Notes under the pieces: model-generated
Told to the model about the DNA's origin: nothing
The model's input: the letters and a program-made list of their open reading frames with translations, nothing else
Database searches by the model: none
Source of the DNA: an uncultured archaeon
Lineage (GTDB): Archaea; Thermoproteota; Bathyarchaeia; Bathyarchaeales; Bathycorpusculaceae
Reading direction: 5' to 3'
DNA length: 64,000 bases
Assembly (NCBI GenBank): GCA_963782915.1
Contig: CAWALK010000015.1
Span: 160,001 to 224,000, forward strand
Program-made: the position numbers and the translations under genes
Shown: positions 3,086 to 62,690 of the stretch, one piece after another
Layout: the number at the start of each line of letters is the position of its first letter
Numbering within the stretch: the stretch's first letter is position 1

Positions 3086-4611
3086 TTGCTTGTTTCACCT
3101 TCAAATGATCCATGGGGTTTTCAAGAACTCGCGGAATCCACTCGATGATGTCTGTTGCAACCATGTGGTAACCGATTTCGGATGCTACCAAGTCGCCTGC
3201 TGCACCGTTTACGAATGCTCCGGCAACTGCTGCTTCGAATGGGTCAGCATGGAGCGCCATTAATCCTGCGATGATTCCGCCTAAAACGTCGCCTGTGCCG
3301 CCGACGGTCATGCCTGGGTTACCGGTGAAGTTCAGTTTTGAACGTTCAGCGTTACATATGATGTCGGTTTTGCCTTTTACAAGGATGGTTGCGTTTAGTT
3401 TCTTCGCGGTTTTCTGAATTGCCGCTACTCGCGCCTCCTGGTTTTCAGGCAAGGTTTCGCCCGTGAGTATAGCGTATTCGCCTGCATGCGGCGTCAAAAC
3501 CAACGGAACCTTCAAGGCACGTTTGAATTTGGCGAAGGCTTTCAACCCGTCAGCATCCAGCAGCAACGGTTTACCCGCCATTTCAACTTCATCGATGCAG
3601 GCTTTAACGAATTCTTGGGTTTCAGGGGTCAATCCCATACCGGGTCCCATGGCTACTACATCGACGTTTTTGATAAAGGGTTTGAGCGTTTCCATGTTCG
3701 CTGGGTTTAGATTGTCGCCTTCTAGTTTAACCGTAATCAAGTCAGGCGAGATTGATGTTATTTCGTAAGCGTTTTTTTGGGGCGTCGCCAAATAGACGAG
3801 GTCTACTCCTGTGCGCATTGCTGCCAAGGAAACTAATGTTGGAGCGCCTGAGTAGACGTCGCTGCCGCCGATAACCAGTAAGCGCCCAAAATCGCCTTTG
3901 TGACCCGTTGGACTACGCGGTTTAGATGCTAACAACACGTCACCCGGTCCTGCGAATCGCTCCATTTCCGAGGGCAAACCAATATCGCCAACAACGACTT
4001 CGCCGGTGTATCCCTTGGCTTTTTCCAAGCCCTTCTTTGCCTTATGGAAAGTCACGGTCAAATCCGCTTTAACAGCGGTTCCTAAGACGTCGCCGGTGTC
4101 GGAGTCGATTCCTGTAGGGACGTCGACGGCGAGTTTAAAGCCCTTTGTTGCGTTTATGGCGTCTACGACTTGGCTTATGGGCGCTTTAAGTTTGCCCTTA
4201 GTCCCTGTTCCTAATAGGGCATCGATAACTACGTCAGCAGCTATGGCAGGGATCGCTGCACTGTCTGTAACTTCAATAACAGGAATTTTACCTTGAAGCG
4301 ACCTGTAAAATCAGGAAGTTTTTCAGTGCCGCTTCATGGCTAATATCGCGTCCTTTTCCAACCAAAAACACGGACACCTCAAACCCCGCTGCCAACAGGT
4401 GCCGGGCAGCTACAAAGCCATCTCCGCCGTTGCCGCCAAGTCCGCAAAAAATCGCAACCTGCTTACCCTTGGGGAATCGTGTGATGACTTCTTGGGCTAC
4501 GTTTCGCCCTGCCAACTCCATGAGCTGCAGGAGGCTGACGCCGAAGTACTCTGCGTTAACTTCCAGGGCACGCATTTCGCGGCTTGAAATGAAGGAGTTT
4601 TGGTTTTGCAT
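3075..4611 (-). CDS. nnr: bifunctional NAD(P)H-hydrate epimerase/dehydratase, one frameshift near 4300
   Basis: N part has LMELAG and GGNGGDG. After the shift the frame reads DALLGTG, AVDVPTG, TVTFH, then HKGDFG, TPHAGE and GGTGDVLGG. Confidence 0.9.
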
Positions 4612-4665
4612 AGTGACGCCTTACTACCATTTGTCTACGTTTAAAGATAAGGCTATCCTTGAGCC

Positions 4666-5513
4666 GTATACAAAAGCATCTCCCAACACACTTTTTTAGG
4701 GAACAACTTTTTTGAGAATTTTTGAAAACAGAAAAAAAGGGCAAAAAACGCTAATTTTTTCGAAAATAGGCGAAGCTTATATAATCATGCCGAGCCAACG
4801 GCGACAATTTCGCTGGAGTTAACGACAAGGCAAGCTGAAGTGCAATAGGGTGCTCTTTGAAAAGTTCTGCCGGCGACTTGTACTCGCCAACAGACGCTTA
4901 TGCCAAGTGTCATAAGCAGTTGGGCTGTCAATTTCCGCTCAAAACCACACTGTTAAGCGAACCGGCAAGACAATACACGGTACTTAAGCTGCTTTGCACC
5001 CCAATTTTTAAAAATATTATTGAAAATCCGGTTGCCGCTTGCTTTCCAGCGATAAACTTTAGGAGCTAAGTGCCCTAAAGTTACTTGCTAGACGAAAATT
5101 TCTGCAATTATTGTTAGCCGTGACTGTGTTCTGCTGCTGTAATTCAGTTTGCCTTTTGGATTTTGCCAGAGTTTCTATTTTAGCTCTTGGTTTCTCACCG
5201 AAAAATAATCGAACGTACACTTTTTACATTAAATAGTTAAAAAAACCCTGGTGGTTTACCTGAAAAGACATGAAAGGCTGCAATTTATCCATAGACAACG
5301 TAAAAGTGTGGGCTACGGTTAACGAATAACCGAAAACTGAGGTCAGCTGGTTTTTGCGGATTTGGCGTTTTTCCCTGAAATCGAGGGAAACCTTATTTTT
5401 TGCGTTTTCACGTAAAATTGCCGTGGGTGCCGTTGGTGGTTGGTGTTACGGGTGGTTTGGGTGGTTCGCAAGGTTTGCAGGGAAAACTGTGTTTTGGTGA
5501 TGCTTTTGTATAC
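4666..5513 (+). repeat. modular non-coding element copy U1, bounded by inverted M1 motifs
   Basis: M1(+) 4666-4697, M4 box 4770-4789, M3 box 5199-5241, M5 box 5281-5327, M1(-) 5481-5513. No credible ORF inside. Confidence 0.75.
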
Positions 5514-5583
5514 AGCCTCCGGCTTAGTGGCGATGTAAACACAAATTACCCATATTTTGCTGCGCATATGTTAACCGTGCGGG

Positions 5584-6299
5584 GTGTCAAGGTTGAGTGT
5601 TGAGCGGAACCTGTTAATTTCGCTCCTAAAATTGACCAAAGAAGGGGCTACTTTAATCAAAGATGTCAATGTAGAGGCAAGATTGCCCTCAACTGTTTGT
5701 ATAAAGTTGCTGCAGAAAATGCAAAATGAAAACCTCATTTATCTGGAAGGCGACAAAGTAGAGGTTGACACTGAAAATCGCCTAAAAATTGCTGTAAAAG
5801 CAGTCTCATTAGGCGCAGATATCCAGAACATAAGTGACACGCTAAAATGGCAAGAGTTTGAAGAAATCGCTGCCATCGCACTTAAAATCAACGGATATGT
5901 CGTTAAGAAAAACTTGCGTTTTACGCATGGCGGCCGCAGATACGAAATAGACGTGGTCGGCTGCCGAAAACCCTTGTTGTCTGCATTGACTGCAAACGTT
6001 GGCAACATGCAATCGCAGCATCTGCGCTTAGGAAAATAGTTGAAGAACAATCCCAGCGAACAGAAGCCTTAGCGGACACTTTGCCCAACCTTAAATTGGA
6101 CCTTGAATGCACTAAATGGGAAAAAGCAAAATTCGTCCCGGCCGTCCTATCGCTTGTTCCAGGAGCCTACAAATTTTACTATGAAGTGCCGGTGGTGCCT
6201 GTGCTTTCGCTGCAAGATTTCATAGGTCAACTGCCCCTGTATATGGAAACAGTGAAGTGCTTTCCCAAAAAATTCAGCACCTTAAGCAGCGATTCTTAG
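5584..6299 (+). CDS. winged-helix plus PD-(D/E)xK (Mrr-like) nuclease-domain protein, frameshift near 5975
   Basis: WQEFEEIAA and YEIDVVG motifs. The reading continues in another frame (CIDCKRW) into ORF 6081-6299. Confidence 0.7.
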
Positions 6300-8153
6300 T
6301 ATCTCTGTTTTTGCCAGTTTAAAGGCTGGGTAAAGACTCAACAAAAACATTGCAATCAACGCTGAAATAAGCCAACCAAAAATCAAAACGATAGTGCTGG
6401 TTGACACTATGGGGTTAGCCATCAAAATCATCACGGTAATAATTGTTCCAAGCGAAATACCAGCTCCGAAGCTCGAAAAAAGCACGATTGCACCCTGAAT
6501 CGCCGAAATATTTATGATCAATCTGGGTCTAGCACCCACTGCCCTTAACATGGCGAATTCGGGTCGTTGCTCATCTATGGATAGCATCATGTAACCAACC
6601 ATACAAAGGGCGGCTGAGGCTACTGTGAAGAGAGGCAGAAACATGATGGCTTGCCAAGTTGCACCCAAAAACGCTTCGTTTTGCTCAACGGTTTGCGTGA
6701 GGTCAAAAACGTCCAAGTCCGAATCCGCCGCCTTCACTATGGCGCGTATTTCAGTTATGGCTGAGTTGCGATCTGCTGAATCCTCGAGGTTAACAACCAG
6801 CAAATTCGGATTCGCTATGCCCGTTGCATTCATCAATCTATCTATAGGTACATAGGTGACTAAGCCGTTGTTTATGGGGTCAACGTTGATGCCCACGATG
6901 CGGAAATTTTTGTTTCCGATTTGTATGCTTTCAACCAGTGGATCTGATAGGCGAATGTATTGCGCTGGGTCTGGGGAATACATTTTTTGGGCGATAGAGT
7001 CGCCGATTACTGCTTCAAAAGTGCCGTTTTCGCTTAGGTTTCTGCCTTTGCTGGGGATATTATTGGTTGATTTTGGGATCTAAACCGATTATGAGTGCTT
7101 CGCCTTTTCTGCTGTCGCCCACATAGGTTTCGGCTCCGTCGATTACGGTAAAGTTGCTGATTTCCCCTACAGTTTCATACAGCACCAGTCGCGGGTTTAC
7201 TGAATTTACACCGGACAAGGCAGTTAATCCGGGATAGACGGTGTCGGGAATTGCGAGTTTAGAATCGGAATAATTGAAGCTGCCTGCCTCTTTTGCGCCC
7301 GCAAACTTTTGCAGCAACAACTCATACTGAACACCCATACTACTATGAGCTACAACAACTGAGTTGCTGTTCGACGGTGCTGTTTACCCATGAAGTTGTG
7401 GTGTCTTTAGCGATTATGCCTCCGGCAACCGAAACCGTCAACAAAACAAACACAATCGAAAGCAAAACAACGATGCGCAGAGTTGCAGATTGCCGCCTAA
7501 AAAGGCTCCTTGAAGCGATACGCCATGTCAACGCTGAATGAGAGAGGGCTTTGTGTTTGCCGCCCATGGCTAAACCGTAGAAATTAACAGGGGAAAGGGC
7601 TTCGATCGCGGACATTTTTGAGGCTTTAATGATGGGCCGCAAACCGAAAACCAACGCCAACACGAAGAATACAACGAAAACTATGGGTGCAAACCACCAA
7701 TTCGGCGTTGAGTAGGCACCAAAAACGAGGTTAGCTGCAGTAAAGTCCGCTAAAAATCCGAAAACCACACCTAAGATGCACCCGATAAAAGTGACTGCCA
7801 ATAGTTCAGTCATGAAGTATCCGCCGACCAAACTGTTGGGGCATCCTGCCGCTTTGATCAAACCAAAATCACGGGTCCGCTGCGCCATCATCAAAAAAAC
7901 AATAAAAGATGTCAAAACTGCGCCGACTATGAAAGATGAGTGCGCCTATGAAAGTTAGGAATTGCCCAAAAGTCGCGCTTAAACCCAACGTAAAAGTACC
8001 CGTTGAGGCAGCTAGTCCGACGCCCAAGCGTCCGCTAAACAGCAGCAAAAACAATGTGGATGCAATACTCAAGGTGAGGGTTGTGATGACTAAGCCTGTT
8101 TGAAGCCGCCTCCGCAGTAAGTCGTTGATTGGGAAGCCTGCGCCGCTACTCAT
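6282..8153 (-). CDS. ABC transporter permease (FtsX/MacB type), broken into four ORFs by frameshifts
   Basis: Two FtsX signatures (QRTRDFGLIKAAG and EQRPEFAMLRAVGA), directly downstream of the ATPase gene. Confidence 0.8.
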
Positions 8154-8850
8154 TTTCCGTCGCCAACTTGCCTTCTTTTAGGGTGATTACTTGGTCGGCT
8201 AATTCGCGGATTTGTAGGTCATGGGTGGAGACTATGACTGTTTTGCCCTTGCTCTTTAGCAGCTGGAGTACGTCGAGGATTTTTTGGGCGTTTTTTGTGT
8301 CAAGGTTTCCTGTGGGTTCGTCGGCCAAAATCAATTCAGGATCATTAGCTAGTGCCCTTGCAAAGGCGACGCGTTGCTGTTCACCTCCGCTAAGTTGGGA
8401 AGGAAAATGTTTTTGGCGATGCTCCAAACCAACCATCGCAATTAACTCGGCAACTCGTGTTTCGATTTCCAGCGGCGGCTTTCGTGTCCACTCCATTGGA
8501 AAAGCCACGTTCTCAGCCACCGTCAAGGTTGAAACTAAGTTGTATGCTTGGAAGACAAAGCCTATGTGGCTGCAGCGAAAGTCTGAGAGAAAATCCTCAT
8601 CCCTGCCAGTCAGATTTTCGTCGGCAACAGTTATTTCTCCTTTTGTGGGCCGATCGATGCCGCTGATAATGTTTAGCAGAGTTGTTTTGCCTGAGCCGGA
8701 GGGGCCACATACGACCACAAATTTTGCTTTAGGAACCTCGATGCTGATGTCTTGCAGGACCGTGATTTTGTGGTTGTTGACTTGGTAGGTTTTCTCCAAG
8801 TTTTTTGTAGTAACCATTAACGAGTCATTATCGGGCATCGCCTTTATCAC
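8146..8850 (-). CDS. ABC transporter ATP-binding protein (LolD/MacB type)
   Basis: Walker A GPSGSGKT, signature LSGGEQQR, ILADEPTGNLD. Confidence 0.95.
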   Translation of the reverse strand: MIKAMPDNDSLMVTTKNLEKTYQVNNHKITVLQDISIEVPKAKFVVVCGPSGSGKTTLLNIISGIDRPTKGEITVADENLTGRDEDFLSDFRCSHIGFVFQAYNLVSTLTVAENVAFPMEWTRKPPLEIETRVAELIAMVGLEHRQKHFPSQLSGGEQQRVAFARALANDPELILADEPTGNLDTKNAQKILDVLQLLKSKGKTVIVSTHDLQIRELADQVITLKEGKLATENE

Positions 8851-8917
8851 CTGTTTTAGTTTAACGAGAGGTTACTTTTAAGCGAATAAGAAGCTTGAGG
8901 TACACTCATTTACCGTG

Positions 8918-9355
8918 CTACTCTGGGTAGCAGGTGTCGATGTTTAGGTTGCCTCGGTCACGCTTCAGAAGCCTGACCTTGTCGGGTAGCTTGTCTTTTT
9001 GCCAATCGCTCCAGCTGATCTCTTTAAACAGCCAACGTTTGCCCAAGTGTGCCACTACAACAGCGTGTTTGCTCTCGTTGCCTGAGGGAATGAATTGGTC
9101 TAGGAACCGGAAGAGTTTGTCGATTTGCACTTTGGGGAAGTAGGCGTAGTAGGTGGCGTTTTTGACTTCAAAAGCGTAGAGGTGGGGGCCTTTGCGCGCC
9201 ATTATGTCTGGGAGAGGGTTGAGGCTTGGGTTGCTCACAGGCACCCGGACCGCGAAGTATCCTTTCTTTTGGAGTAGTTTGACTAGTGCGGTTTCGCTGT
9301 AGAAGCCTCTTTTGCGCCAACGCCTTAGCCGGATGCGGTCTTCTTCAGTGCTCAA
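8918..9355 (-). CDS. Hjc/Hje-like Holliday junction resolvase family nuclease
   Basis: G...E..LVKLLQKKGYFAVRVP.S, PDIMA and AFEVK, the PD-(D/E)xK pattern of archaeal resolvases. Confidence 0.75.
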   Translation of the reverse strand: MSTEEDRIRLRRWRKRGFYSETALVKLLQKKGYFAVRVPVSNPSLNPLPDIMARKGPHLYAFEVKNATYYAYFPKVQIDKLFRFLDQFIPSGNESKHAVVVAHLGKRWLFKEISWSDWQKDKLPDKVRLLKRDRGNLNIDTCYPE

Positions 9356-9420
9356 CTCTTTGTCCTCGCTTTGCTGCTATTGGGGGTTGGTTTAATTAAA
9401 AAATTGTTGCACTGTAGAGC

Positions 9421-9453
9421 GCAAAACTGTGTTTTGGGGATGCTTTTGTATCC
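9421..9453 (-). repeat. dispersed motif M1
   Basis: Minus strand reads GGATACAAAAGCATCCCCAAAACACAGTTTTGC. Confidence 0.85.
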
Positions 9454-9698
9454 GCTTACTTTTTGGCTGGTGAAGCTGGGAGACACTGGTGACCATGCAT
9501 ATTCTGGATATTACCTTGATCACAATGGCAACTGAACAGGTATTGTATAACATTCAGGTTTTAAAAATAATGGCGATAAAGCTCTTACTAAACGCTGTCA
9601 AAGTGCCCTAGAGCCCTATATTGCCGGGAACAAAAGATGTCCCTAAGAGACCAAAAAACATCCGCCGAAACACCACAGAGCACACAAATCAGGCAGCG

Positions 9699-9730
9699 GT
9701 ATACAGAAGCATAACCCAACACACTTTTTT
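9699..9730 (+). repeat. dispersed motif M1, start of degenerate element U2
   Basis: GTATACAGAAGCATAACCCAACACACTTTTTT, followed by degenerate M4-like (9973-9995) and M3-like (10275-10300) boxes. Confidence 0.8.
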
Positions 9731-11657
9731 AGCTACAACCCAAATCCGCAAAAGCCAAGCCCCTGGCAAACTCCCAGATCAGCTGCAAAACCAGTGCTTC
9801 AGCAGTTACCCTCTAAAATCCGAAAATCTCAGATACCGAGCGGTGCATATTTTTCAGAAAAATTTTTTCGGAACAAATCGCCAGAGTTTGCTAATTTGCG
9901 CTCAAAAAGCCAAAAACTGCTCTAAGCACCCGAAGGCTAGCCGAAAAAGTTGGCTTTTGCTTCGCATGGAGATTTTCGGAGGTACTTATATGAGGCCCCG
10001 ATATTCCCCATGCCAGTCTAGTGCACTAGGGACAAACTATACCTAATCAAGGCGTATTTGGCATAAGCGGCTGTTTTTGAGGCGATAGATTTTGGTTTCC
10101 ATGAAAAAATATCTGTTATTTTTTAATCTATGGGGATTCGGAGTAAAACAACCATTCTGATTTAATATTCAACCAAAATAGGGCTAAATTAAAGCTGTTT
10201 TAAGCAAAGAGGTCATACGATTAACCGTAAAATTTGCAGCCCTAGAGTAGGGCTCAAAATTTTAGAATTCAGATAAAAACTTCGATTTAACTTTTTTACA
10301 GCAGACTTGTCGCTCACCCCCTTTGTTGACAACTTACAGTCTTAGAAAGCAATCTCAACTGCCCTTCTGAAGGCCGACGACTCAGAGAAAATTTGAACAG
10401 TTAGTATTTGCAGGATTCCAAAGTGAGGCTAGGTCTGACTAGCAAAGAGGAAAACCCAAATCGAAAATACACAGCTGCTCAACAAGTTGTTTATTGGAAA
10501 AACGCTGGTGACACCGAAAAGCAGTTACTGCCTAGTTTAGAAGAGTGGTGACACACCAGAGAACACGATCGTTGCTTTAGGCAATACCAAATTTTTGATC
10601 TAATTAGAAACTGTATGCAGAACCTGTAGAGGGGTTAAGGCTATTTCCAGAATTGGTTGTTGCTCTTTAAAGGTCTGGATCCGGTAGTAGAAAAAACAAT
10701 CCTTGGCCAATCAGTGGAGGTGTTTCCAGTAACTCTTGAGTGGGTTTGATTCGAGGGCTTTAACCGCTCAAACCATTAGCGGGCTACAGATATCTTAAGG
10801 AAGAAGAGGTCTTAATCGATTGTACTCAGCAACAATAACAGCGTCAGGCATCCCTGAGAGCACTGGCACCGATAGGTAAAAATCAAAATAGACCCACCCC
10901 TCACTAAAATTTTCTTGCTGCTTCAACCAAATAATTTATCAGTTTCCGCTAACGAGGCACATTTAAACGATGACTAAGTAATCAAGAAATCATTTCACAG
11001 TCACCTAAGATATCATAAAGCTGCTTCTTCAAATAACAAGCAAAATAGTTAGGTTCGGCTTAACTGACTTTCGGCAACTAACAATCCTCGACGTTGTATG
11101 CAATCAACCCAAAGGGCGCTCGCTCTTTCCGGTAAATCGGCTAATCTTCCTGCTGATAAAATTAAGAATGTTTTCTTCTGTAGTAACCTTACTACCAAAA
11201 ATGACGCTGCACAGGAAGAGGGTACAGCGAGCAGCCAATTGATGTCGCTTCACAGGTAAGCCTCAGGACCCGGAATAGTGAGTGGCATAAAGTTAGGCGA
11301 GTGTAAACAGCCTTTATCACGTGAAATTTTTTTGGCTAACTATCATAGTTACGTGCTCTGACGGGTTGTTTTTTGTGTAAATGAAAGTCACTTACAGGTG
11401 CAAGCAGAGTTTTCTTTTAGGTTTTTATCGCTTGGTTGTGTCAGGTGATGGTTATTTTTATTGTAATACTTTAGCCACAGTGGTCACGCCAGCGGTATTT
11501 TAGATCAAGCAAGAGAGCAATAAACCTGTAGTTTTGGAGAGGAGTAAGTGAGGCAAATATCACTAATTTACCCTTTCAGGAATATTTTGTAAAGTGTCAA
11601 GTTAGGTAACCAATTCGTTTTCCACGATTGTAACCCAAATTTGCCAAGACCGCACAG

Positions 11658-11900
11658 CTACATTTGCATACTCACAAGTGGAATAACTTCCGCCCGTCCG
11701 TGAACACTGCGCAGATGAAAATCATGCGCCTCTAAGGTATCAAAAAGCACTCCGCAATCTCTACACCGATACTTGCCCTCAGCGGTTCTCTCGGAGGCAT
11801 CCTCATAATCCAGCAGGGCATTCGCCAAGTTTTCATCATAAATTTCCTGATACCCTTGATGTTTTTTTGTTTGCTGTTTCACCTTAAAAGTCACCTTCAA
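11658..11900 (-). CDS. small C2H2 zinc-finger protein
   Basis: YRCRDCGVLFDTLEAHDFHLRSVH. Confidence 0.75.
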   Translation of the reverse strand: MKVTFKVKQQTKKHQGYQEIYDENLANALLDYEDASERTAEGKYRCRDCGVLFDTLEAHDFHLRSVHGRAEVIPLVSMQM

Positions 11901-12020
11901 AAAGAGAATATCGCTTCATGATTCACTGCGTTCTTACAGCTTTAAAGCGTGTGTGAGTGGCTTATGACAGCAACAAACGCCTGCATTAATGGTATATCTC
12001 GGGCTTTTGCGAAAAATTCC

Positions 12021-12054
12021 GTATACAAAAGCATCCCCCAGACACAGTCTTTTT
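12021..12054 (+). repeat. dispersed motif M1
   Basis: GTATACAAAAGCATCCCCCAGACACAGTCTTTTT. Confidence 0.88.
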
Positions 12055-12107
12055 CGAGGTTTAGAAAAGTTTTTCAGCAAAACAACCCGATAAACCATGG
12101 GAGAAAT

Positions 12108-12521
12108 ATGTCTGGCTTTAGCGTTGTAAATAAAACCTTAAAGTTTGCCACCCAAGGCGAAATCCACTTCACAGACTTATCCGAAAAAATCCAAGAAGCC
12201 GTCAGCGCCTCTGCAATCAAAAACGGCATCGCCCACGTCTTTGCACCCCACGCAACCGGCATCCTGATACTAACCGAAAACGACCCTGCCCTACTAGAAG
12301 ACATCAAAGCCTTCCTTGAAGAACTCGCGCCTAAACATGGAAATTATCAGCACCCATCAAACGCCCATGCCCACTTGCGATCCATGCTTCTGCCCCCGGA
12401 CAAGACCTTACCTGTGATTGATGGGCAAGTGGCGTTTGGGACCTGGCAATCGCTGCTCTATGTAGAAACCGATGTTTATCCAAGGGAAAGAACCGTTATC
12501 ATCCAAGTTATGGGCGAATAA
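12108..12521 (+). CDS. YjbQ/UPF0047 family protein
   Basis: FAPHATG, TEND, NAHAHL and FGTWQ motifs. Start reassigned to ATG 12108. Confidence 0.9.
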   Translation: MSGFSVVNKTLKFATQGEIHFTDLSEKIQEAVSASAIKNGIAHVFAPHATGILILTENDPALLEDIKAFLEELAPKHGNYQHPSNAHAHLRSMLLPPDKTLPVIDGQVAFGTWQSLLYVETDVYPRERTVIIQVMGE

Positions 12522-12564
12522 TTGCCCTGAGGAGTGTCTTCGTTTTTCTGGCTAATTTCTTCGA

Positions 12565-12913
12565 ATTCGCTTTTCGTAGCCCCAAAAAATACTTCGACCA
12601 TGGAGAAATTGAACAATTAAGTGCTAATCCATTCAGCCAGTAACGGCAGGTTTAACGTTTTGTTGTAAAAAGTGTCCATTCGATTGTTTTTCGCATAGAA
12701 GAACTCTGCCAACAGCGTAAGTGTACGGTTCGCGCTGACAAATCGGTCACCAAAAGCACACTAAAAGCCCCGTTTCAGCGCTCAATTACCCAAATTTTTA
12801 GCCATTGAGGCAGAAAAAGCCCTAATTCGAACGCTTTTGTGCAATAGAAAGGGTTGCTATGGGCTAAAAATCAGCGGTTTTTAACCCTCTGCCCATGACT
12901 ATATAGGCTTCGC
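12565..12913 (-). repeat. modular non-coding element copy U3
   Basis: M4 12913-12894, M3 12693-12651, M5 12611-12565, all on the minus strand with the same M3-M5 spacing as U1. Confidence 0.75.
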
Positions 12914-12928
12914 ATCAGTTCGAGATGC

Positions 12929-13666
12929 TTAGCCGCGGTGTTCAGTCTTTATCCGTTTATTGACACCCTTAGAGCGCATTTTCGCTTTCTTTTTTGCATC
13001 GTCAATCAGCGAGGGTTTCTCAGCGAACGAATCTGGCGTAGACTCTTCAATGGGCAACTTATCCGCTACCTCAGAGAAGTCAGCGTCAGTTGCTTGCTCA
13101 GCACCATTTTTGAGCATGGTTTCAACAGCACGATCGACATCTCCCTCCTGTAGGTTGATGCCCAATGTTGCATCCATAAGAACAACTGCCTCAAAGCCAA
13201 GCTTGCATGCATCAACAACTGTGTTAACGACGCAGTAATCCGTAGCTAAGCCGGCAACAAAAAGTCGCTTAACTCCGAACTGGCGCAGTTCATTAGCAAG
13301 GTTTGTGCCGTCAAAGGCTGAATACGCTTCATGTTTGGGGTCGGTTGCTTTTGAAATCACGCAATAGTCATCGGGTAGTTTGAGGTTTGGGCTAAATTTG
13401 GCGCCCTCTGTTCCTTGAACACAATGAGGCGGCCAAGCTCCACCTTGCGCTATAAACGATATGTGATCCGCGGGGTGCCAATCGCGTGAAGCTATGATAT
13501 GTGCTTCTGAGGATTTGAAATGGTTAATGTATTCGTTTATGACGGGGATGATTTCATCGCCGCCTGTGACGGGTAAGGCTCCGCCGGGAAGAAAATCAAT
13601 CTGAATGTCTGTAATTAGGAGGGCATCATGTTCGGTTAAGTTGTAGGGTTTATTCAAACGCTTCAC
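12929..13666 (-). CDS. pncA: nicotinamidase/pyrazinamidase
   Basis: DIQIDFLPGGAL, DWHP..H.SF, WPPHCVQGT, YSAF and GLATDYCV motifs. Confidence 0.9.
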   Translation of the reverse strand: MKRLNKPYNLTEHDALLITDIQIDFLPGGALPVTGGDEIIPVINEYINHFKSSEAHIIASRDWHPADHISFIAQGGAWPPHCVQGTEGAKFSPNLKLPDDYCVISKATDPKHEAYSAFDGTNLANELRQFGVKRLFVAGLATDYCVVNTVVDACKLGFEAVVLMDATLGINLQEGDVDRAVETMLKNGAEQATDADFSEVADKLPIEESTPDSFAEKPSLIDDAKKKAKMRSKGVNKRIKTEHRG

Positions 13667-13805
13667 CTTTCATAAAAAGAACTGTTTACTAATTTAAAAT
13701 ATTCTAAAACCAATTATTGCTATAGCCTAAACTATTGAATAAACCTTTTTTCGCCACACCGATAACTCGTAAAAAACATAATTAAACGCACGGCGAACTA
13801 GCAGA

Positions 13806-14087
13806 ATGGTGAAAGTTTTGGCGATTTTGGCTTATGTTCTCTTTAAGGTTGCTTCAGGTACCGAGCGTGAAGTTGCACAGAAGCTGATTGAGTTTGAGGA
13901 GGTTACTCAGTCGGACATACTCTTTGGGGAATATGATGTTATTGCACGGGTTTCCACGGATGATTTGGATAAGCTGGAAGAGTTTGTGTCAGAAAAAATC
14001 AGGACTGTTCAGAATGTTTTGGTTACCTCAACTATGATTATTTCACGGGAATACAGGGGTAAGGGTAGCATTCCTAAAACTAAGTAA
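13806..14087 (+). CDS. stand-alone Lrp/AsnC ligand-binding (RAM) domain protein
   Basis: FGEYDVIARV motif, no HTH domain. Confidence 0.85.
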   Translation: MVKVLAILAYVLFKVASGTEREVAQKLIEFEEVTQSDILFGEYDVIARVSTDDLDKLEEFVSEKIRTVQNVLVTSTMIISREYRGKGSIPKTK

Positions 14088-14114
14088 CTTTGCGATTTTG
14101 TGCTTAGAAGCCTG

Positions 14115-14718
14115 TTTTCGTTGCCCGATGGCTTATTTGCATGCGCCAGAACAGTAAATTGTACTCATAAGCGTTATTTTGAGCTATGGTACTGGTGTTT
14201 CTTTAACTGAATAATGTAAAAAGTGACCATTCGAAAATTTTTCGCCGACACTAACAGCAAACTAAGTTCGGGTCTATCCAGCTCTGCTAAAAAAGCCTTC
14301 TATCAGCCGAGATACCCCAAACGTATCCAACCCCGAACACTCAAAACATCTAACACATAGCCAAAATCAACCCTTAAACAGACAACACGACAGATCAAAA
14401 CCCCCGAGTGGCCACCGGAAAAAACCAAAGGTACCTAAAAGCGTCCGATAACAGCGCTATTTGGCGTTAATCTTGCAGGCGTACCTGATTTGAGATGCCT
14501 TACTTTGGCTGGCAGAGACTTTTTGTTTTAGGTGCTTTCCGTTTTTGCTCTGAGATAGACAAATGCAGTGATCGTTTAGTGTTTGGATTTGTTGAGAGGT
14601 TGTTTCGAGGCGTCTGGCTTGTGCATGATTATATAAGGTTCGCTATTTTTCGAAGATTTAGGCATTTTTTGGGGTTTGTTGGCGAAGAAAACTGTGTGTG
14701 GGGGATGCTTTTGTATAC
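14115..14718 (-). repeat. modular non-coding element copy U4
   Basis: M1 14718-14685, M4 14643-14624, M3 14244-14202, M5-like CAATTT...GGGCAACGAAAA starting at 14161. Confidence 0.75.
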
Positions 14719-14746
14719 AGACCACAAATCGATGGGTTTTAGCCGC

Positions 14747-14768
14747 TTTATATAAGGGAGGGGGAGGT
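14747..14768 (+). repeat. TATA+G-tract motif M2
   Basis: TTTATATAAGGGAGGGGGAGGT. Confidence 0.65.
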
Positions 14769-15061
14769 ACCTTGGAGGTAGGTAGTAGGTTCCAGCAGGG
14801 TCTCTTTGGTTTTTAATACGGGATAGGGGGTCTTGGCAAAGCAGCAAAAGCGTTTTTATCAAACACACAAAAGCCCCAATCTGTTTGCATAAGCAGTCAG
14901 CAACCGAAAAGAATACTGACGCCAAAAAGCAATCATCTACAACGTCTGTTGGTTGTTGTTGAAACAAGGCAATTCCACAGCAACCACTAAAACAAAAAAG
15001 AGCCTCAAACGCTCCGCTGCCATAAATAACTAAATCAAAAATTGTTATAGAGAGAAAAAGC

Positions 15062-15265
15062 TTACTCTTTTTCTTCTTCTTTAATTTCGCATTGAAGCTT
15101 CTTAATGATTTCGTCAGCTCTCAACGCTTCGATTTTAAGTGTATAGAGTTGACCTGGTGTGCGCAACTTCAATTTTACGCCGTCTTTTAGACGTTTAACC
15201 TGGCATTGTTTTGCTTTGGCGCTCATGGCCACGAATTTCTCAACATCAGTAATCTCAGATGGCAT
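15062..15265 (-). CDS. rpl38e: ribosomal protein eL38
   Basis: MPSEITDVEKFV...VKLKLRTPGQLYTLKI matches the eL38 pattern (MP..I....F, VKFKVR....LYTL). 67 aa. Confidence 0.8.
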   Translation of the reverse strand: MPSEITDVEKFVAMSAKAKQCQVKRLKDGVKLKLRTPGQLYTLKIEALRADEIIKKLQCEIKEEEKE

Positions 15266-15418
15266 TTTACTTGTTCCTCAGTTAATATTCGCTGTGATGG
15301 ATAGCACGCCAAGTTTTTATCTGTTTTGGTGGACATAACTTATATTCAATCAACCCGTCTAAATATGAAAGATAAGCTGCGTAAGCGTATGCTTGGCTTA
15401 ACGGAGAATCAACGTTAG

Positions 15419-16661
15419 ATGAATCGAGTGCATGTCCTCTCGCTGATTTTAATCATAATTCTCATATTGGCAACAGCTACAGCGCTATTTTCTTACACGC
15501 AGAGCAGCAGCCAAACAGCCAACGCTTCAGCGTCAGTTTACGTGGGAGTGGCTTTCGGCGGAAACACCCCTGAACAAGCAAAACTCCTCATCGACAGAAC
15601 CAAAACCTACACCAACCTCTTCATCCTCAACGCAGGCAGAAACAACATCAGCACAAACGAATCGGCGGTTGAGGAAATCTGCGATTACGCCACAAACGCC
15701 AACCTAAACATAATCGTAAACTTGGGCATCAGAACCAACGCTAATTGGCAGTGGCAACTTCAATTCGTCAATAACTCCAAAGACCGCTATGGCGACAAAT
15801 TCCTCGGCGTTTACTATGACGATGAACCCATGGGAATACCGTTTGATTGGAATTGGCCCTCAGTCTTTGCCAGAAGCAGCTCAGCATTTTCTGACCCTTA
15901 CTTACCTGTTTTGCAGCCGCTTTTCCAACGAGTTGAAACCGCCAAGCAGACAGGGCAACTACCACGAAAATTACACAGTAGAATCCCAATGGTACCAAAG
16001 ACTCTTACTGCAGAACAGAGGACATAACGACCTCAAAAACAACAACATCACAACCTACACATCCGATTACCTGCTCTACTGGTACGACTACTTGGGTGGT
16101 TACAGCACGGTTTTTGCCCAAATCGGATGGAACACAAGCCTCATCAACCAGCAAATCAGCCAACTCCGAGGAGCAGCCACACTGCAAAACAAAACATGGG
16201 GAACAATAATAACGTGGAAAACCATGCAGCCACCATACTTAGACAGCGGCAAAGCAATCTATAGTCAAATGGTAACCTCCTACAATGCAGGAGCAAAATA
16301 CATCACCATCTTCAACTACCCATACAACGACAGCAGCAATCCCTATGGCACATTGACCGATGAACATTTCCAAGCATTAGAGAGGTTTTGGAATGAGGTT
16401 GCAACAAAAACAACGCCGAACTCAGCCCATGCCGAGGCAGCATTGGTTTTACCTAAAGATTACGGTTGGGGAATGCGACGCCCAGATGACAAGATATGGG
16501 GCTTCTGGAACCCAGACACCAAATCACCCCAGATTTGGACTAACACCCAAAAACTGCTCGATCAGTATGGACTCAAACTGGACATAGTCTATGATGACCC
16601 AGCATACCCAATCCAAGGCAACTATAGCAAAATTTACTATTGGAACCAAACAATCCCCTAA
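15419..16661 (+). CDS. membrane-anchored/secreted hypothetical protein, frameshift near 15960
   Basis: N-terminal TM segment, YYDDEP motif. ORFs 15419-16027 and 15789-16661 join into one protein. Confidence 0.75.
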
Positions 16662-58736: not shown

Positions 58737-59052
58737 GGGCTGGTGTATTGGTTGTAACCCGCCTTCTGTTGTTTGTGGCATTCGGCTAATCGGGCTACCC
58801 GCGCCTTCCGGTAGATTCTTCATCGGCGACTGTTTGCCCTTTCCACTTGCAGGACGGCCGTTTCACCGTTTCCATGCCGGCGGACTCGACATCACAAAAT
58901 GTGTCATAGCCATATCCGGTTGGACGTTTCGTTTCTGCTCCGTTGCCAAACCTCTCGGTCTGCCCCATCTGGAGCTGCAATTCTACATGTGGGCGGAGTT
59001 TCCTCAATCCCCTAATTCGGGGACCGATGGCCACGCACCAACTCACCAGCCC
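58737..59052 (-). ncRNA. rnpB: RNase P RNA
   Basis: Minus strand has P4 halves GAGGAAACTCCGCCC and AACAGAAGGCGGGTTA, internal GCAGAAAC, GGTGAAAC and TGCAAG, and terminal P1 helix GGGCTGGTG/CACCAGCCC. About 316 nt, GC-rich. Confidence 0.92.
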
Positions 59053-62123: not shown

Positions 62124-62690
62124 ATGAGTAAACGAAAACCCATCATTAACATACAAAACATTGTCGCTTCAGTTTCTCTTAACCAGAAAATCGACTTACA
62201 AAAAATCGTCGAGAAATTCCCACAGACCGAATACAACCCATCCGTATTCCCGGGCTTGGTTTTCCGCTTAAAAAAACCAAAAACCGCAACCTTGATTTTC
62301 GGCACGGGCAAAATGGTCTGCACAGGCGCAAAATCCGAAAAGGAATCACGTAGCGCAGTAGAGAAAGTTGTGAAGGAACTCCGCGGTGAAGGCATCCAAA
62401 TTACTGAGAAACCAATCGTTAACATTCAAAACATCGTTGCTTCAGCTGAACTCGGCGGAGAAATTGACCTTGAAAGCTTAGTTTACAAGCTTGAACGCGT
62501 CATGTATGAACCTGAACAGTTTCCAGGCGCAGTCTTCCGCATGGCTGAACCCAAAGTGGTCTTCTTAATCTTCAGTGCTGGCAAACTGGTTTGTGTTGGC
62601 GCAAAGAAAGAAGAGCAAGTCTACGAAGCAGTGGATAAGATTCAGCAGTTGCTCGAAGAAAAAGAACTCATCTACTATCCCACAGCATAA
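62124..62690 (+). CDS. tbp: TATA-box-binding protein
   Basis: Two direct repeats IQNIVAS...Y.P..FPG.VFR...PK...LIF..GK.VC.GAK. Confidence 0.97.
   Translation: MSKRKPIINIQNIVASVSLNQKIDLQKIVEKFPQTEYNPSVFPGLVFRLKKPKTATLIFGTGKMVCTGAKSEKESRSAVEKVVKELRGEGIQITEKPIVNIQNIVASAELGGEIDLESLVYKLERVMYEPEQFPGAVFRMAEPKVVFLIFSAGKLVCVGAKKEEQVYEAVDKIQQLLEEKELIYYPTA

Follow-up and report, generated by a model that had tools for sequence, protein, structure and literature searches.

What is the role of a set of non-coding DNA units that repeat the same short boxes in the same order, and that are kept together at a single place on an archaeal chromosome? The question is raised by a 64,000-nt stretch of DNA (hereafter, the window) from an uncultured archaeon of the Bathycorpusculaceae, within the Bathyarchaeia (contig CAWALK010000015.1, positions 160,001 to 224,000), whose genome, labelled G000, is represented by a 3.28-Mb assembly. 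The original prediction for this DNA had described three such units, U1, U3 and U4, and a supposedly degenerate fourth, U2, and had offered 3 candidate explanations: a family of promoter-driven non-coding RNAs (ncRNAs) with variable 5' and constant 3' parts, a multi-site nucleoprotein platform, or an old non-autonomous mobile element. As we describe below, the locus is composed of four paralogous non-coding modules, which are old and fixed at one locus in a genus-level Bathyarchaeia group of soil and gut archaea. From sequence comparisons the nucleoprotein platform appeared to fit best of the 3 candidates, and we tentatively favor a reading at the level of DNA, in which the modules would constitute a promoter-bearing nucleoprotein platform near the replication terminus.

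The modules are recognized by boxes designated M4, M3 and M5, whose coordinates, order and relative orientation we found to be as first described. A search of the window for M4 with up to 2 mismatches returned 3 matches, at 4770-4789(+), 12894-12913(-) and 14624-14643(-), and a search for M3 with 0 mismatches likewise returned 3, at 5199-5241(+), 12651-12693(-) and 14202-14244(-); from 100 dinucleotide shuffles the expectation for either box was 0. Each box is confined to these three sites across the whole assembly. The loose M5 pattern, CAATTT...GGGC[TA]ACG, matched 6 times genome-wide, with 3 matches in the locus, at 5281, 12611 and 14161, and the other 3 in unrelated places. Within the units, the distance from M3 to M5, which lies downstream, is roughly fixed at ~40 nt, and a T-tract often comes after M5; the identity of 32/47 that had been claimed between the U1 and U3 copies was confirmed on a recount by eye.

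Archaeal promoters are defined by a TATA octamer with a purine-rich transcription factor B recognition element (BRE) directly upstream. The consensus of 46 M4 matches, ttttCGAAa..cagCGAAcCTTAtATAatCAT (CGAAcCTTAtATAatCAT), agrees with the original prediction in showing this form, with an A/T-rich TATA octamer and a purine-rich BRE directly upstream, and it is comparable to box CTTTATATGAA of the predicted 16S rRNA promoter of the window genome. M3 is an asymmetric box of 43 bp with fixed internal spacing, CGAAAAA-N3-TCGAA-N4-CACTTTTTACA-N7-GTTAAA. Its 42 copies from 19 genomes aligned without gaps to the consensus CGAAAaat.tTCGAAtG.tcA.TTTTTACA.TAAA.AGTTAAAaa, in which runs of invariant bases are split by single free positions over the full 43 bp, with no indel in any copy; such a pattern fits protein-DNA contacts better than RNA pairing. 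Neither M3 nor M4 has the symmetry of a recombinase core site. At the start of M4, of M3 and of the U2 promoter block there is a pair of CGAA boxes with a spacing of 10-12 nt, about one helical turn. There are 8 occurrences of CGAA-N5-8-CGAA in the 10.9-kb locus, 7 of them within M4, M3 or U2 boxes, as compared with a genome mean of 2.5 per segment of that length, and the locus ranks in the top 1.3% of such segments.

U1 reads rightward and begins at its outer edge with a copy of a further motif, M1 (4666..4692, +), whose arrow points into the locus. M4 follows at 4761..4792(+), where CGAA-N6-CGAA stands directly 5' of the TATA sequence CTTATATAA, and then TCAT, in a predicted rightward BRE/TATA promoter. 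The core (4793..5198, +) is an unconstrained spacer without similarity to the other cores or to the genome, and holds a tract of at least five T residues (T5+). M3 (5199..5241, +) comes next, followed by M5 together with an ACG-N-CGAA box (5281..5330, +). In the tail (5331..5583, +), seen in 18 aligned orthologous units, a BRE/TATA-like block (in relatives, GGAAAGGTTATTTCAG) is accompanied by a stretch rich in G/T and by an inverted M1 (5485-5512, -) upstream of a gene for a NERD/Mrr-type nuclease. U3 and U4 read leftward. In U3, M4 (12894..12922, -) lies directly after the stop codon of pncA, and the core (12694..12893, -) leads to M3 (12651-12693) and M5 (12575-12611), a part (12575..12693, -) that ends 54 nt from the stop codon of the convergent gene yjbQ. 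U4 has M1 at its outer edge (14690..14717, -), M4 with its CGAA pair (14624..14652, -), and a core (14245..14623, -) that is A/C-rich in its first half and G/T-rich in its second; M3 (14202-14244) and M5 (14119-14161) follow (together 14119..14244, -), and the unit ends ~30 nt from the stop codon of a convergent gene for a stand-alone Lrp/AsnC RAM-domain protein. As had been noted, M1 precedes M4 in U1 (4667) and in U4 (14717). The cores of U1, U3 and U4, originally put at about 410, 200 and 380 nt, measured 407, 198 and 377 nt, respectively. The statement that these regions are free of open reading frames (ORFs) holds for ORFs of 100 aa or more, of which we found none in the locus regions; it does not hold for shorter ones, as ORFs of 50-89 aa are present.

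We compared the window with 18 congener loci, giving 19 loci from 19 species-level genomes. A DNA search with U1 matched 22/24 congeners and 0/16 genomes from 15 other genera of the order. The box slots are syntenic in 19/19 loci, among the flanking genes nnr, the NERD/Mrr-type nuclease gene, an ABC transporter gene, hjc, yjbQ, pncA and the Lrp/AsnC RAM-domain gene. Units of type A (U1), with the arrangement M1-M4-core-M3-M5-tail-inverted M1, lie upstream of the nuclease gene; type B (U4) adjoins nnr or the outer flank; and type C (U3) sits between pncA and yjbQ. The types can be told apart by small signatures, such as the base that follows TTTTTACA, which are maintained in different species. 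Because the M3 copies are gap-free and these type-specific signatures are kept across species, we regard the units as ancient paralogues under purifying selection and not as recent duplicates. The boxes are 85-100% conserved while the adjacent spacers are saturated, and the proposal that the family is under selection was thus borne out across all 19 genomes.

The proposal that U2 is degenerate was not. By sequence comparison, U2 is a fourth unit type (D), the best conserved of the four. It has M1 at its outer edge (9700..9728, +), and its promoter block of 88 nt (9931..10018, +) showed 81.9-90.8% identity over 52-88 nt in 18/18 other loci. The block carries a CGAA-N7-CGAA pair at 9931-9945 and a TATA-like CTTATATGA at 9985-9993, which is located inside the 14-bp spacer of two 17-bp inverted arms (9965-9981 and 9996-10012; 13/17 complementary). 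The downstream part (10019..10310, +) comprises several conserved islands, with a T6 tract at its end, and includes the M3-like box previously noted at 10283-10305.

The occurrence of the boxes beyond these genomes was examined by querying public genomes, one for each prokaryote species, with the 21-nt core of M3; 80 of the 123 stretches that matched were taken in. Among the matches listed, M4 was present at most 600 nt upstream in 56/60 M3 loci of the Bathyarchaeia type, so that the boxes do not occur independently of each other; also among the matches listed, neither the CGAA pair nor M4 was present at 20 loci from other organisms and at 6 viral loci, the latter being chance matches to the M3 pattern on viral contigs. 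The earlier view that the elements belong to no described family was sustained by searches of Rfam (no match at E<=5) and of phages and plasmids (no match). Nor did we find a description of such elements in the literature on Bathyarchaeia and Bathycorpusculum, in a coverage that was without most subscription journals.

The cores that separate M4 from M3 vary from 166 to 426 nt across relatives. Among 39 cores, mutual similarity was seen only between the closest species pairs; the three window cores matched none of the others, were unique when compared with their own genome, and had no match in phages or plasmids. In the closest pair of loci (L013/L017), three units were 79.2, 80.9 and 83.5% identical, as compared with 71.3% at 404 four-fold degenerate sites, and from these sequences the divergence of the spacers appears close to neutral, any constraint being weak at most. 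Base composition is skewed along the cores, the first quarter being A/C-rich and the last G/T-rich (mean keto skew from -0.12 to +0.25), and homopolymer tracts are abundant: 127 T5+ tracts versus 51 +/- 6 expected, and 48 tracts of at least five A residues versus 16 +/- 4 expected. A T5+ tract is present before M3 in 38/38 cores, with the first tract a median of 126 nt after M4 and a median core length of 346 nt. Oligo-T tracts are archaeal transcription termination signals; with such tracts before M3 in all 38 cores, a transcript initiated at M4 should therefore usually stop inside the core.

The orientation of the modules is also conserved. The order in the window is A, pointing right (4.7 kb), D, pointing right (9.9 kb), then C and B, both pointing left (12.9 and 14.6 kb), and in 16/19 loci the M4, M3 and U2 boxes are convergent in this manner, those on one side pointing right and those on the other pointing left. 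Two of the 3 exceptions reflect extra M4-like matches in or beside the nnr coding region, and the third is a locus cut by a contig end. The point of convergence always lies between U2 and yjbQ. This variable centre (10320..12104 in the window) consists of ORF-free DNA plus a small ORF with a C2H2 zinc-finger motif (CxxC...HxxH; 11658-11900, -). Its length ranged from 625 to 3627 nt in 17 genomes, and the only widely shared 10-mers in it were those of M1 (16/17).

Where on the chromosome is this convergent array found? Archaeal origins normally adjoin orc1/cdc6. In the four complete genomes of relatives (G003, G014, G041 and G042; sizes 2.35-3.04 Mb), the distance of the locus from cdc6-1, the better-scoring cdc6/orc1 gene, is 49.1, 48.4, 49.5 and 47.7% of the circle, and, given the usual association of origins with these genes, the antipodal locus therefore marks the opposite pole. 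In G014 the cumulative GC skew peaks in the 20-kb bin of cdc6-1 and is lowest at 1860-1900 kb, and the cumulative gene orientation peaks at 1900-1940 kb, where genes converge; the locus occupies 1898.6-1907.5 kb. The cdc6 genes of the window genome are on contigs other than the window contig (C22 and C18); its skew, too, has a peak at cdc6-1 and a broad minimum around the locus, and tracks the strand of the genes, C exceeding G in coding strands. The locus is probably the replication terminus. In contrast to cdc6-1, the second cdc6/orc1 gene (G000:C18, ~132.7 kb) is not associated with a GC-skew switch, which suggests a single dominant origin. A comparison of repeats beside the two cdc6 genes showed few exact 12-mer pairs and nothing box-like.

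The motif M1 (TATACAAAAGCATCnCCnAAACACA) is also distributed with respect to these two poles. It is ~28 nt long and rare, with 7-10 copies per genome; nhmmer gave 19 matches (E<0.01) in the window genome, 8 of them on the window contig, and in the window it is present at 4667(+), 5512(-), 9452(-), 9700(+), 12022(+), 14717(-), 60103(+) and 61782(+). Outside the locus, all the copies in the four complete genomes (14/14) have their arrows directed along the replichore to cdc6-1, a count whose independence is overstated since the genomes are related and many of the sites are probably orthologous; among these 14, the copies found 21-35 kb from the locus, on both sides, are directed away from it. 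The 6/6 significant copies on the window genome's cdc6-1 contig (C22, 25.3-260 kb) likewise point toward cdc6-1. M1 orientation thus flips at cdc6-1 and at the locus. Inside the locus there are five to seven copies in both orientations, among them one upstream of hjc (9425..9452, -) and one in the variable centre, 80-85 nt before yjbQ (12022-12050, +).

Several other features of the M1 surroundings may be recorded here. Some M1 copies carry a full palindrome, GATGCTTT-CTGTATACA-AAAGCATC, and a C/A-rich stretch of 60-160 nt follows M1. Two parts of a dispersed repeat are located at ~14732-14852 and ~14882-15007; at least 80 matches, with identities of 70-94%, were distributed over more than 20 contigs; the repeat holds a TATA box and then a G-rich run (TTTATATAAGGGGAGGGGG-like), and in several places it is found 25-45 nt upstream of M1. 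The TATA-binding-protein gene of the window (62124-62690, +) has an M1 copy ~340 nt upstream.

How might these elements work together? We propose, tentatively, that each module opens with a canonical archaeal promoter (TATA after two CGAA boxes, in M4 or in the U2 block), which is aimed at the centre of the locus and would fire into a near-neutral spacer of 200-440 nt that is crowded with T-tracts and is without ORF or fold. In 3 of the 4 modules the spacer is closed by the rigid M3, which has the same CGAA-pair start, and then by M5. The conserved information would on this proposal be read as DNA and not as RNA: M4, M3 and the U2 block are putative sites for one or more sequence-specific DNA-binding proteins, and the modules would form a multi-site nucleoprotein platform with short, disposable transcripts directed inward. 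Its likely role would be to mark or insulate the pole, as a barrier to transcription, replication forks or SMC, and not to produce RNA.

A number of observations weigh against this proposal. M4 resembles an ordinary strong promoter, so that an RNA product is possible, and the units of the closest species pair are somewhat more alike than their four-fold sites, which would allow weak constraint on the cores. The homopolymer tracts of the cores, at 16.1/kb, are only ~1.9 times as dense as in ordinary ORF-free gaps of the window genome (8.6/kb). The four complete genomes, being related and probably collinear, amount to roughly one or two independent observations of the antipodal position; and in the window genome, gene orientation diverges at cdc6-1 and converges ~65 kb to the left of the locus. 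No candidate for a binding protein was found: the neighbouring NERD nuclease belongs to a widespread family (1470 matches) and is not box-specific, and the C2H2 zinc-finger ORF was rejected as a box-binding factor, with presence in only 7/24 congeners when the window sequence was the query. Finally, there is no conserved dif-like 11-6-11 site in the locus. We searched the 3.5-16.5 kb interval for 11-bp inverted arms with spacers of 5-8, and none of 76 candidates was both non-coding and conserved. Those most widely shared (7/18 and 5/18 loci) are inside the nnr and yjbQ reading frames, the next (4/18) is the copy of M1 at 4669, a sequence with more than one occurrence in the genome, and the remainder were present in at most 2.

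A more specific possibility, which we consider doubtful, is that the locus is a dedicated terminus organizer in which M4, M3 and U2, together with M1, would serve as polar protein sites that confine fork fusion in the manner of a Ter trap, or that replace an Xer/dif or SMC-boundary site. The best tyrosine-recombinase (PF00589) match of the window genome scored 26.7 bits, and the four complete relatives have 6-9 such matches each, of up to 84 bits, at differing positions. As a separate observation, tyrosine-recombinase genes are located 14-35 kb from the locus in 3 of these 4 relatives (G003, ~934-943 kb; G014, ~1866 and 1942 kb; G041, ~631 kb). They may encode the integrases of mobile elements gathered in the vicinity of the terminus, or an Xer-type enzyme.

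Could the units instead be functional ncRNA genes? There would be two ways to see them as such: M4 might direct a fast-evolving RNA, or the 3' half of M3 (TAAAnAG plus TTAAAAAA, BRE/TATA-like) might drive a small RNA that carries M5. The canonical BRE/TATA form of M4, so like the predicted rRNA promoter, is compatible with this explanation, as are the conserved orientation and order of the units, the position of M5 ~40 nt after M3 with a T-tract often next, and the slight excess of conservation over four-fold sites in the closest pair. Yet the part that would be transcribed from M4 is not conserved between species, and the T5+ tracts that precede M3 in 38/38 cores make it improbable that M3 and M5 are often present on an M4 transcript. 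Searches for RNA structure gave no encouragement. In U4, folding energy was no better than that of shuffled sequences (z = +0.81 sense, +0.48 antisense), which also disposed of a long core hairpin between the A/C-rich 5' half and the G/U-rich 3' half. RNAalifold returned 3 invariant pairs and 0 covarying pairs for the M3-M5 part of 18 type-A units, and 0 pairs and no consensus structure for 19 U2 sequences. No RNA family matched the 1-20 kb interval at the Rfam gathering score, and nothing was found in 4500-15500 even at E<=5; elsewhere in the window, Rfam located the archaeal RNase P RNA, at 58743-59046(-). We saw no box C, by eye only, that would favor a C/D-box or H/ACA reading of the M3-M5 part. 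As a putative antisense seed, M5 was also rejected: no convincing target stood out among genome matches with up to 2 mismatches, and four copies of a repeated gene start resemble the M5 complement over three codons only. In the aggregate, these results weaken the original suggestion of RNAs with variable 5' and constant 3' parts, and we regard ncRNA genes of either kind as somewhat unlikely.

Small proteins were likewise considered. The ORFs at 4857-5069 (70 aa) and 5343-5567 (74 aa) contain no Pfam family above threshold, and the cores that hold them lack conservation from one species to another. Conservation of the M4 ATG is poor, and this codon is followed by stop codons after 10-16 codons in U1, U3 and U4; the spacing from M5 to the ACG box differs between units by non-multiples of 3, so that the blocks fall in different frames. 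With early stops and frames not kept, small-ORF readings of the M4 ATG, and of M5 on either strand, were ruled out.

It may also be asked whether the units serve neighbouring genes (the NERD nuclease gene for type A, pncA for type B) as leaders or as extended regulatory regions upstream, with M4 and M3 as promoter and operator sites of a local regulon. Type A is indeed upstream of the nuclease gene, in the sense orientation, in 18/18 loci that hold both, and in 4 genomes without the Lrp-like gene, type B is 114-211 nt upstream of pncA, also in sense. The neighbours are related to NAD, as seen for pncA, nnr and a macro-domain gene. However, units of type C, and most of type B, are directed at convergent genes from the 3' side (yjbQ and the Lrp-like gene, respectively), and pncA and the nuclease gene have BRE/TATA-like boxes of their own nearer to the start codon. 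The T-tracts would stop M4 transcripts, and the same boxes would have to serve unrelated genes. We consider a leader function for the units unlikely.

Three of the neighbouring genes deserve comment in their own right. The NERD/Mrr-type nuclease gene of the window (5584-6299) encodes 151 aa plus fragments as compared with 240-245 aa in relatives, and the FtsX-type permease (6282-8153) is in 3-4 pieces as compared with 624 aa in relatives. The reading frames 15419-16027 and 15789-16661 overlap and also look frameshifted relative to intact relatives. All three are either pseudogenes or the result of indel errors in the assembly.

That the locus might be a replication origin is, in our judgement, very unlikely, in spite of several features that could be taken in its favor. 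In such a scheme, inverted M1 copies would be initiator boxes around ORF-free DNA rich in A/T tracts, and the promoters would provide activating transcription. The five to seven M1 copies do occur in both orientations within 10 kb around such DNA, the cumulative GC-skew minimum at the locus is the signature of a bacterial origin, and the immediately flanking genes point away from the locus. Against this, no cdc6/orc1 gene is near: in the window genome the two copies are carried on other contigs, and the complete genomes have cdc6-1 at the antipode. At a scale of 100 kb, gene orientation in G014 converges on the locus; it is directed away from cdc6-1 on the left flank of that gene and is flat on the right. 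In the window genome, moreover, skew follows gene strand, and its sign does not identify an origin. We know of no origin-recognition-box layout that M1 resembles.

One rearrangement of the locus was observed. In the window genome and in L011, L014 and L019, the ~9-kb stretch from U1 to U4 has the opposite orientation with respect to the nnr flank and to the flank with the 15419-16661 reading frames; these four group as a single clade (SH-aLRT 95), with one change on the tree. The inversion thus happened once in evolution, by way of the inverted outer units U1 and U4. A programmed or recurrent inversion switch was ruled out, the inverted configuration being limited to that clade, and three soil DNA sequencing runs examined over 4000-15500, which gave short pieces at low depth, showed no joint at the boxes and no sign of inversion polymorphism. 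In the inverted clade the M1-M4 parts of both outer units are alike, which accounts for the similarity of U1 and U4 upstream of M4 that had been reported. Although three to four copies show the same order of boxes, inverted M1 copies (4667+, 5512-) stand at both ends of U1 with AGCC beside each, and U1 and U4 have recombined once to invert 9 kb, the notion that the units are functionless relics of a non-autonomous mobile element or of neutral segmental duplication is scarcely credible, and the mobile element of the original prediction is rejected with it, as the copies are found only here, in the same syntenic slots in 19/19 genomes and with type signatures shared by orthologues, the AGCC flank is not repeated in relatives and there is no target-site duplication, M1 also occurs alone elsewhere, conserved boxes between saturated spacers require purifying selection, and there is neither a transposase nor a match in phages, plasmids or viral contigs.

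The preferred reading, a promoter-bearing platform near the terminus, can be placed beside several known systems. Miniature inverted-repeat transposable elements and other non-autonomous derivatives of insertion sequences share with the units a repeated, non-coding format of 0.4-0.9 kb, in one case with inverted M1 brackets, but the units occupy a single fixed locus without dispersed copies or target-site duplication, and each copy type is orthologous. Like archaeal ncRNA genes with BRE/TATA promoters, the units have a CGAA-type BRE next to TTATATAA, no ORF, and T-tracts downstream; they differ from such genes in that the promoter and a distal box are conserved whereas the RNA body and its length are unconstrained, with no structure and no Rfam family. 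Should the locus be only a cluster of fast-evolving non-coding transcription units, its interest would be modest.

In bacteria, the Ter/Tus system of E. coli and the Ter/RTP system of B. subtilis consist of short asymmetric boxes in opposed groups opposite the origin. The present locus is similar in having short asymmetric boxes in two opposed groups opposite cdc6-1 and a rare polar motif, M1; the Ter-like layout, with M4, M3 and U2 converging in 16/19 loci at the switch of skew and gene orientation, is one inherited arrangement. The locus differs in that M1 alternates in orientation inside it and does not form two clean opposed groups, and in that several M1 copies are found near cdc6-1, unlike Ter sites; no homologue of Tus or RTP was found, although no search was aimed at one. 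To our knowledge, no sequence-specific system of replication termination has been described in archaea, and the worked examples of archaeal termini known to us are limited to the Xer/dif systems of a few lineages and, in Thermococcus, a single SMC boundary next to dif. Little is known about how replication ends, or the terminus is organized, on archaeal chromosomes. In the present lineage, for which there is almost no genetics, the pole opposite cdc6-1 is sharply defined, with four convergent modules and a replichore-polar M1. M1, M3, M4 and the U2 dyad are concrete sequences for DNA-affinity, contact-map and fork-mapping work in Bathyarchaeia enrichments, and the M1 arrows together with the locus provide a simple computational handle for orienting draft genomes of the group.

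For archaea, replication termination in Sulfolobus is reported to take place by stochastic fork collision (PMC3020120). In Thermococcus kodakarensis, the region that surrounds dif, 'boundary1', is gene-free, lies between convergent genes in the terminus region, and is both necessary and sufficient for a domain boundary that depends on SMC but not on dif or XerA, an architectural role at the level of DNA (PMC11840125). In Thermococcales generally, dif sites have conserved AT-rich flanks, and short polar words point at dif (PMC2958812). The Thermococcales dif region and the present locus have in common a lineage-conserved flanking sequence in inverted orientation, although a conserved dif-like 11-6-11 site is absent from the locus. 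The polarized 4-mers of Thermococcales, like M1, have a replichore-dependent orientation, but they are frequent and point to dif, whereas M1 is rare, ~28 nt long, concentrated at the two poles, and points toward cdc6-1. T. kodakarensis boundary1 is the closest counterpart, being, like our locus, a gene-free terminus region between convergent genes; the locus differs from it in having canonical promoters, CGAA-pair boxes, and four modules spread over 10 kb.

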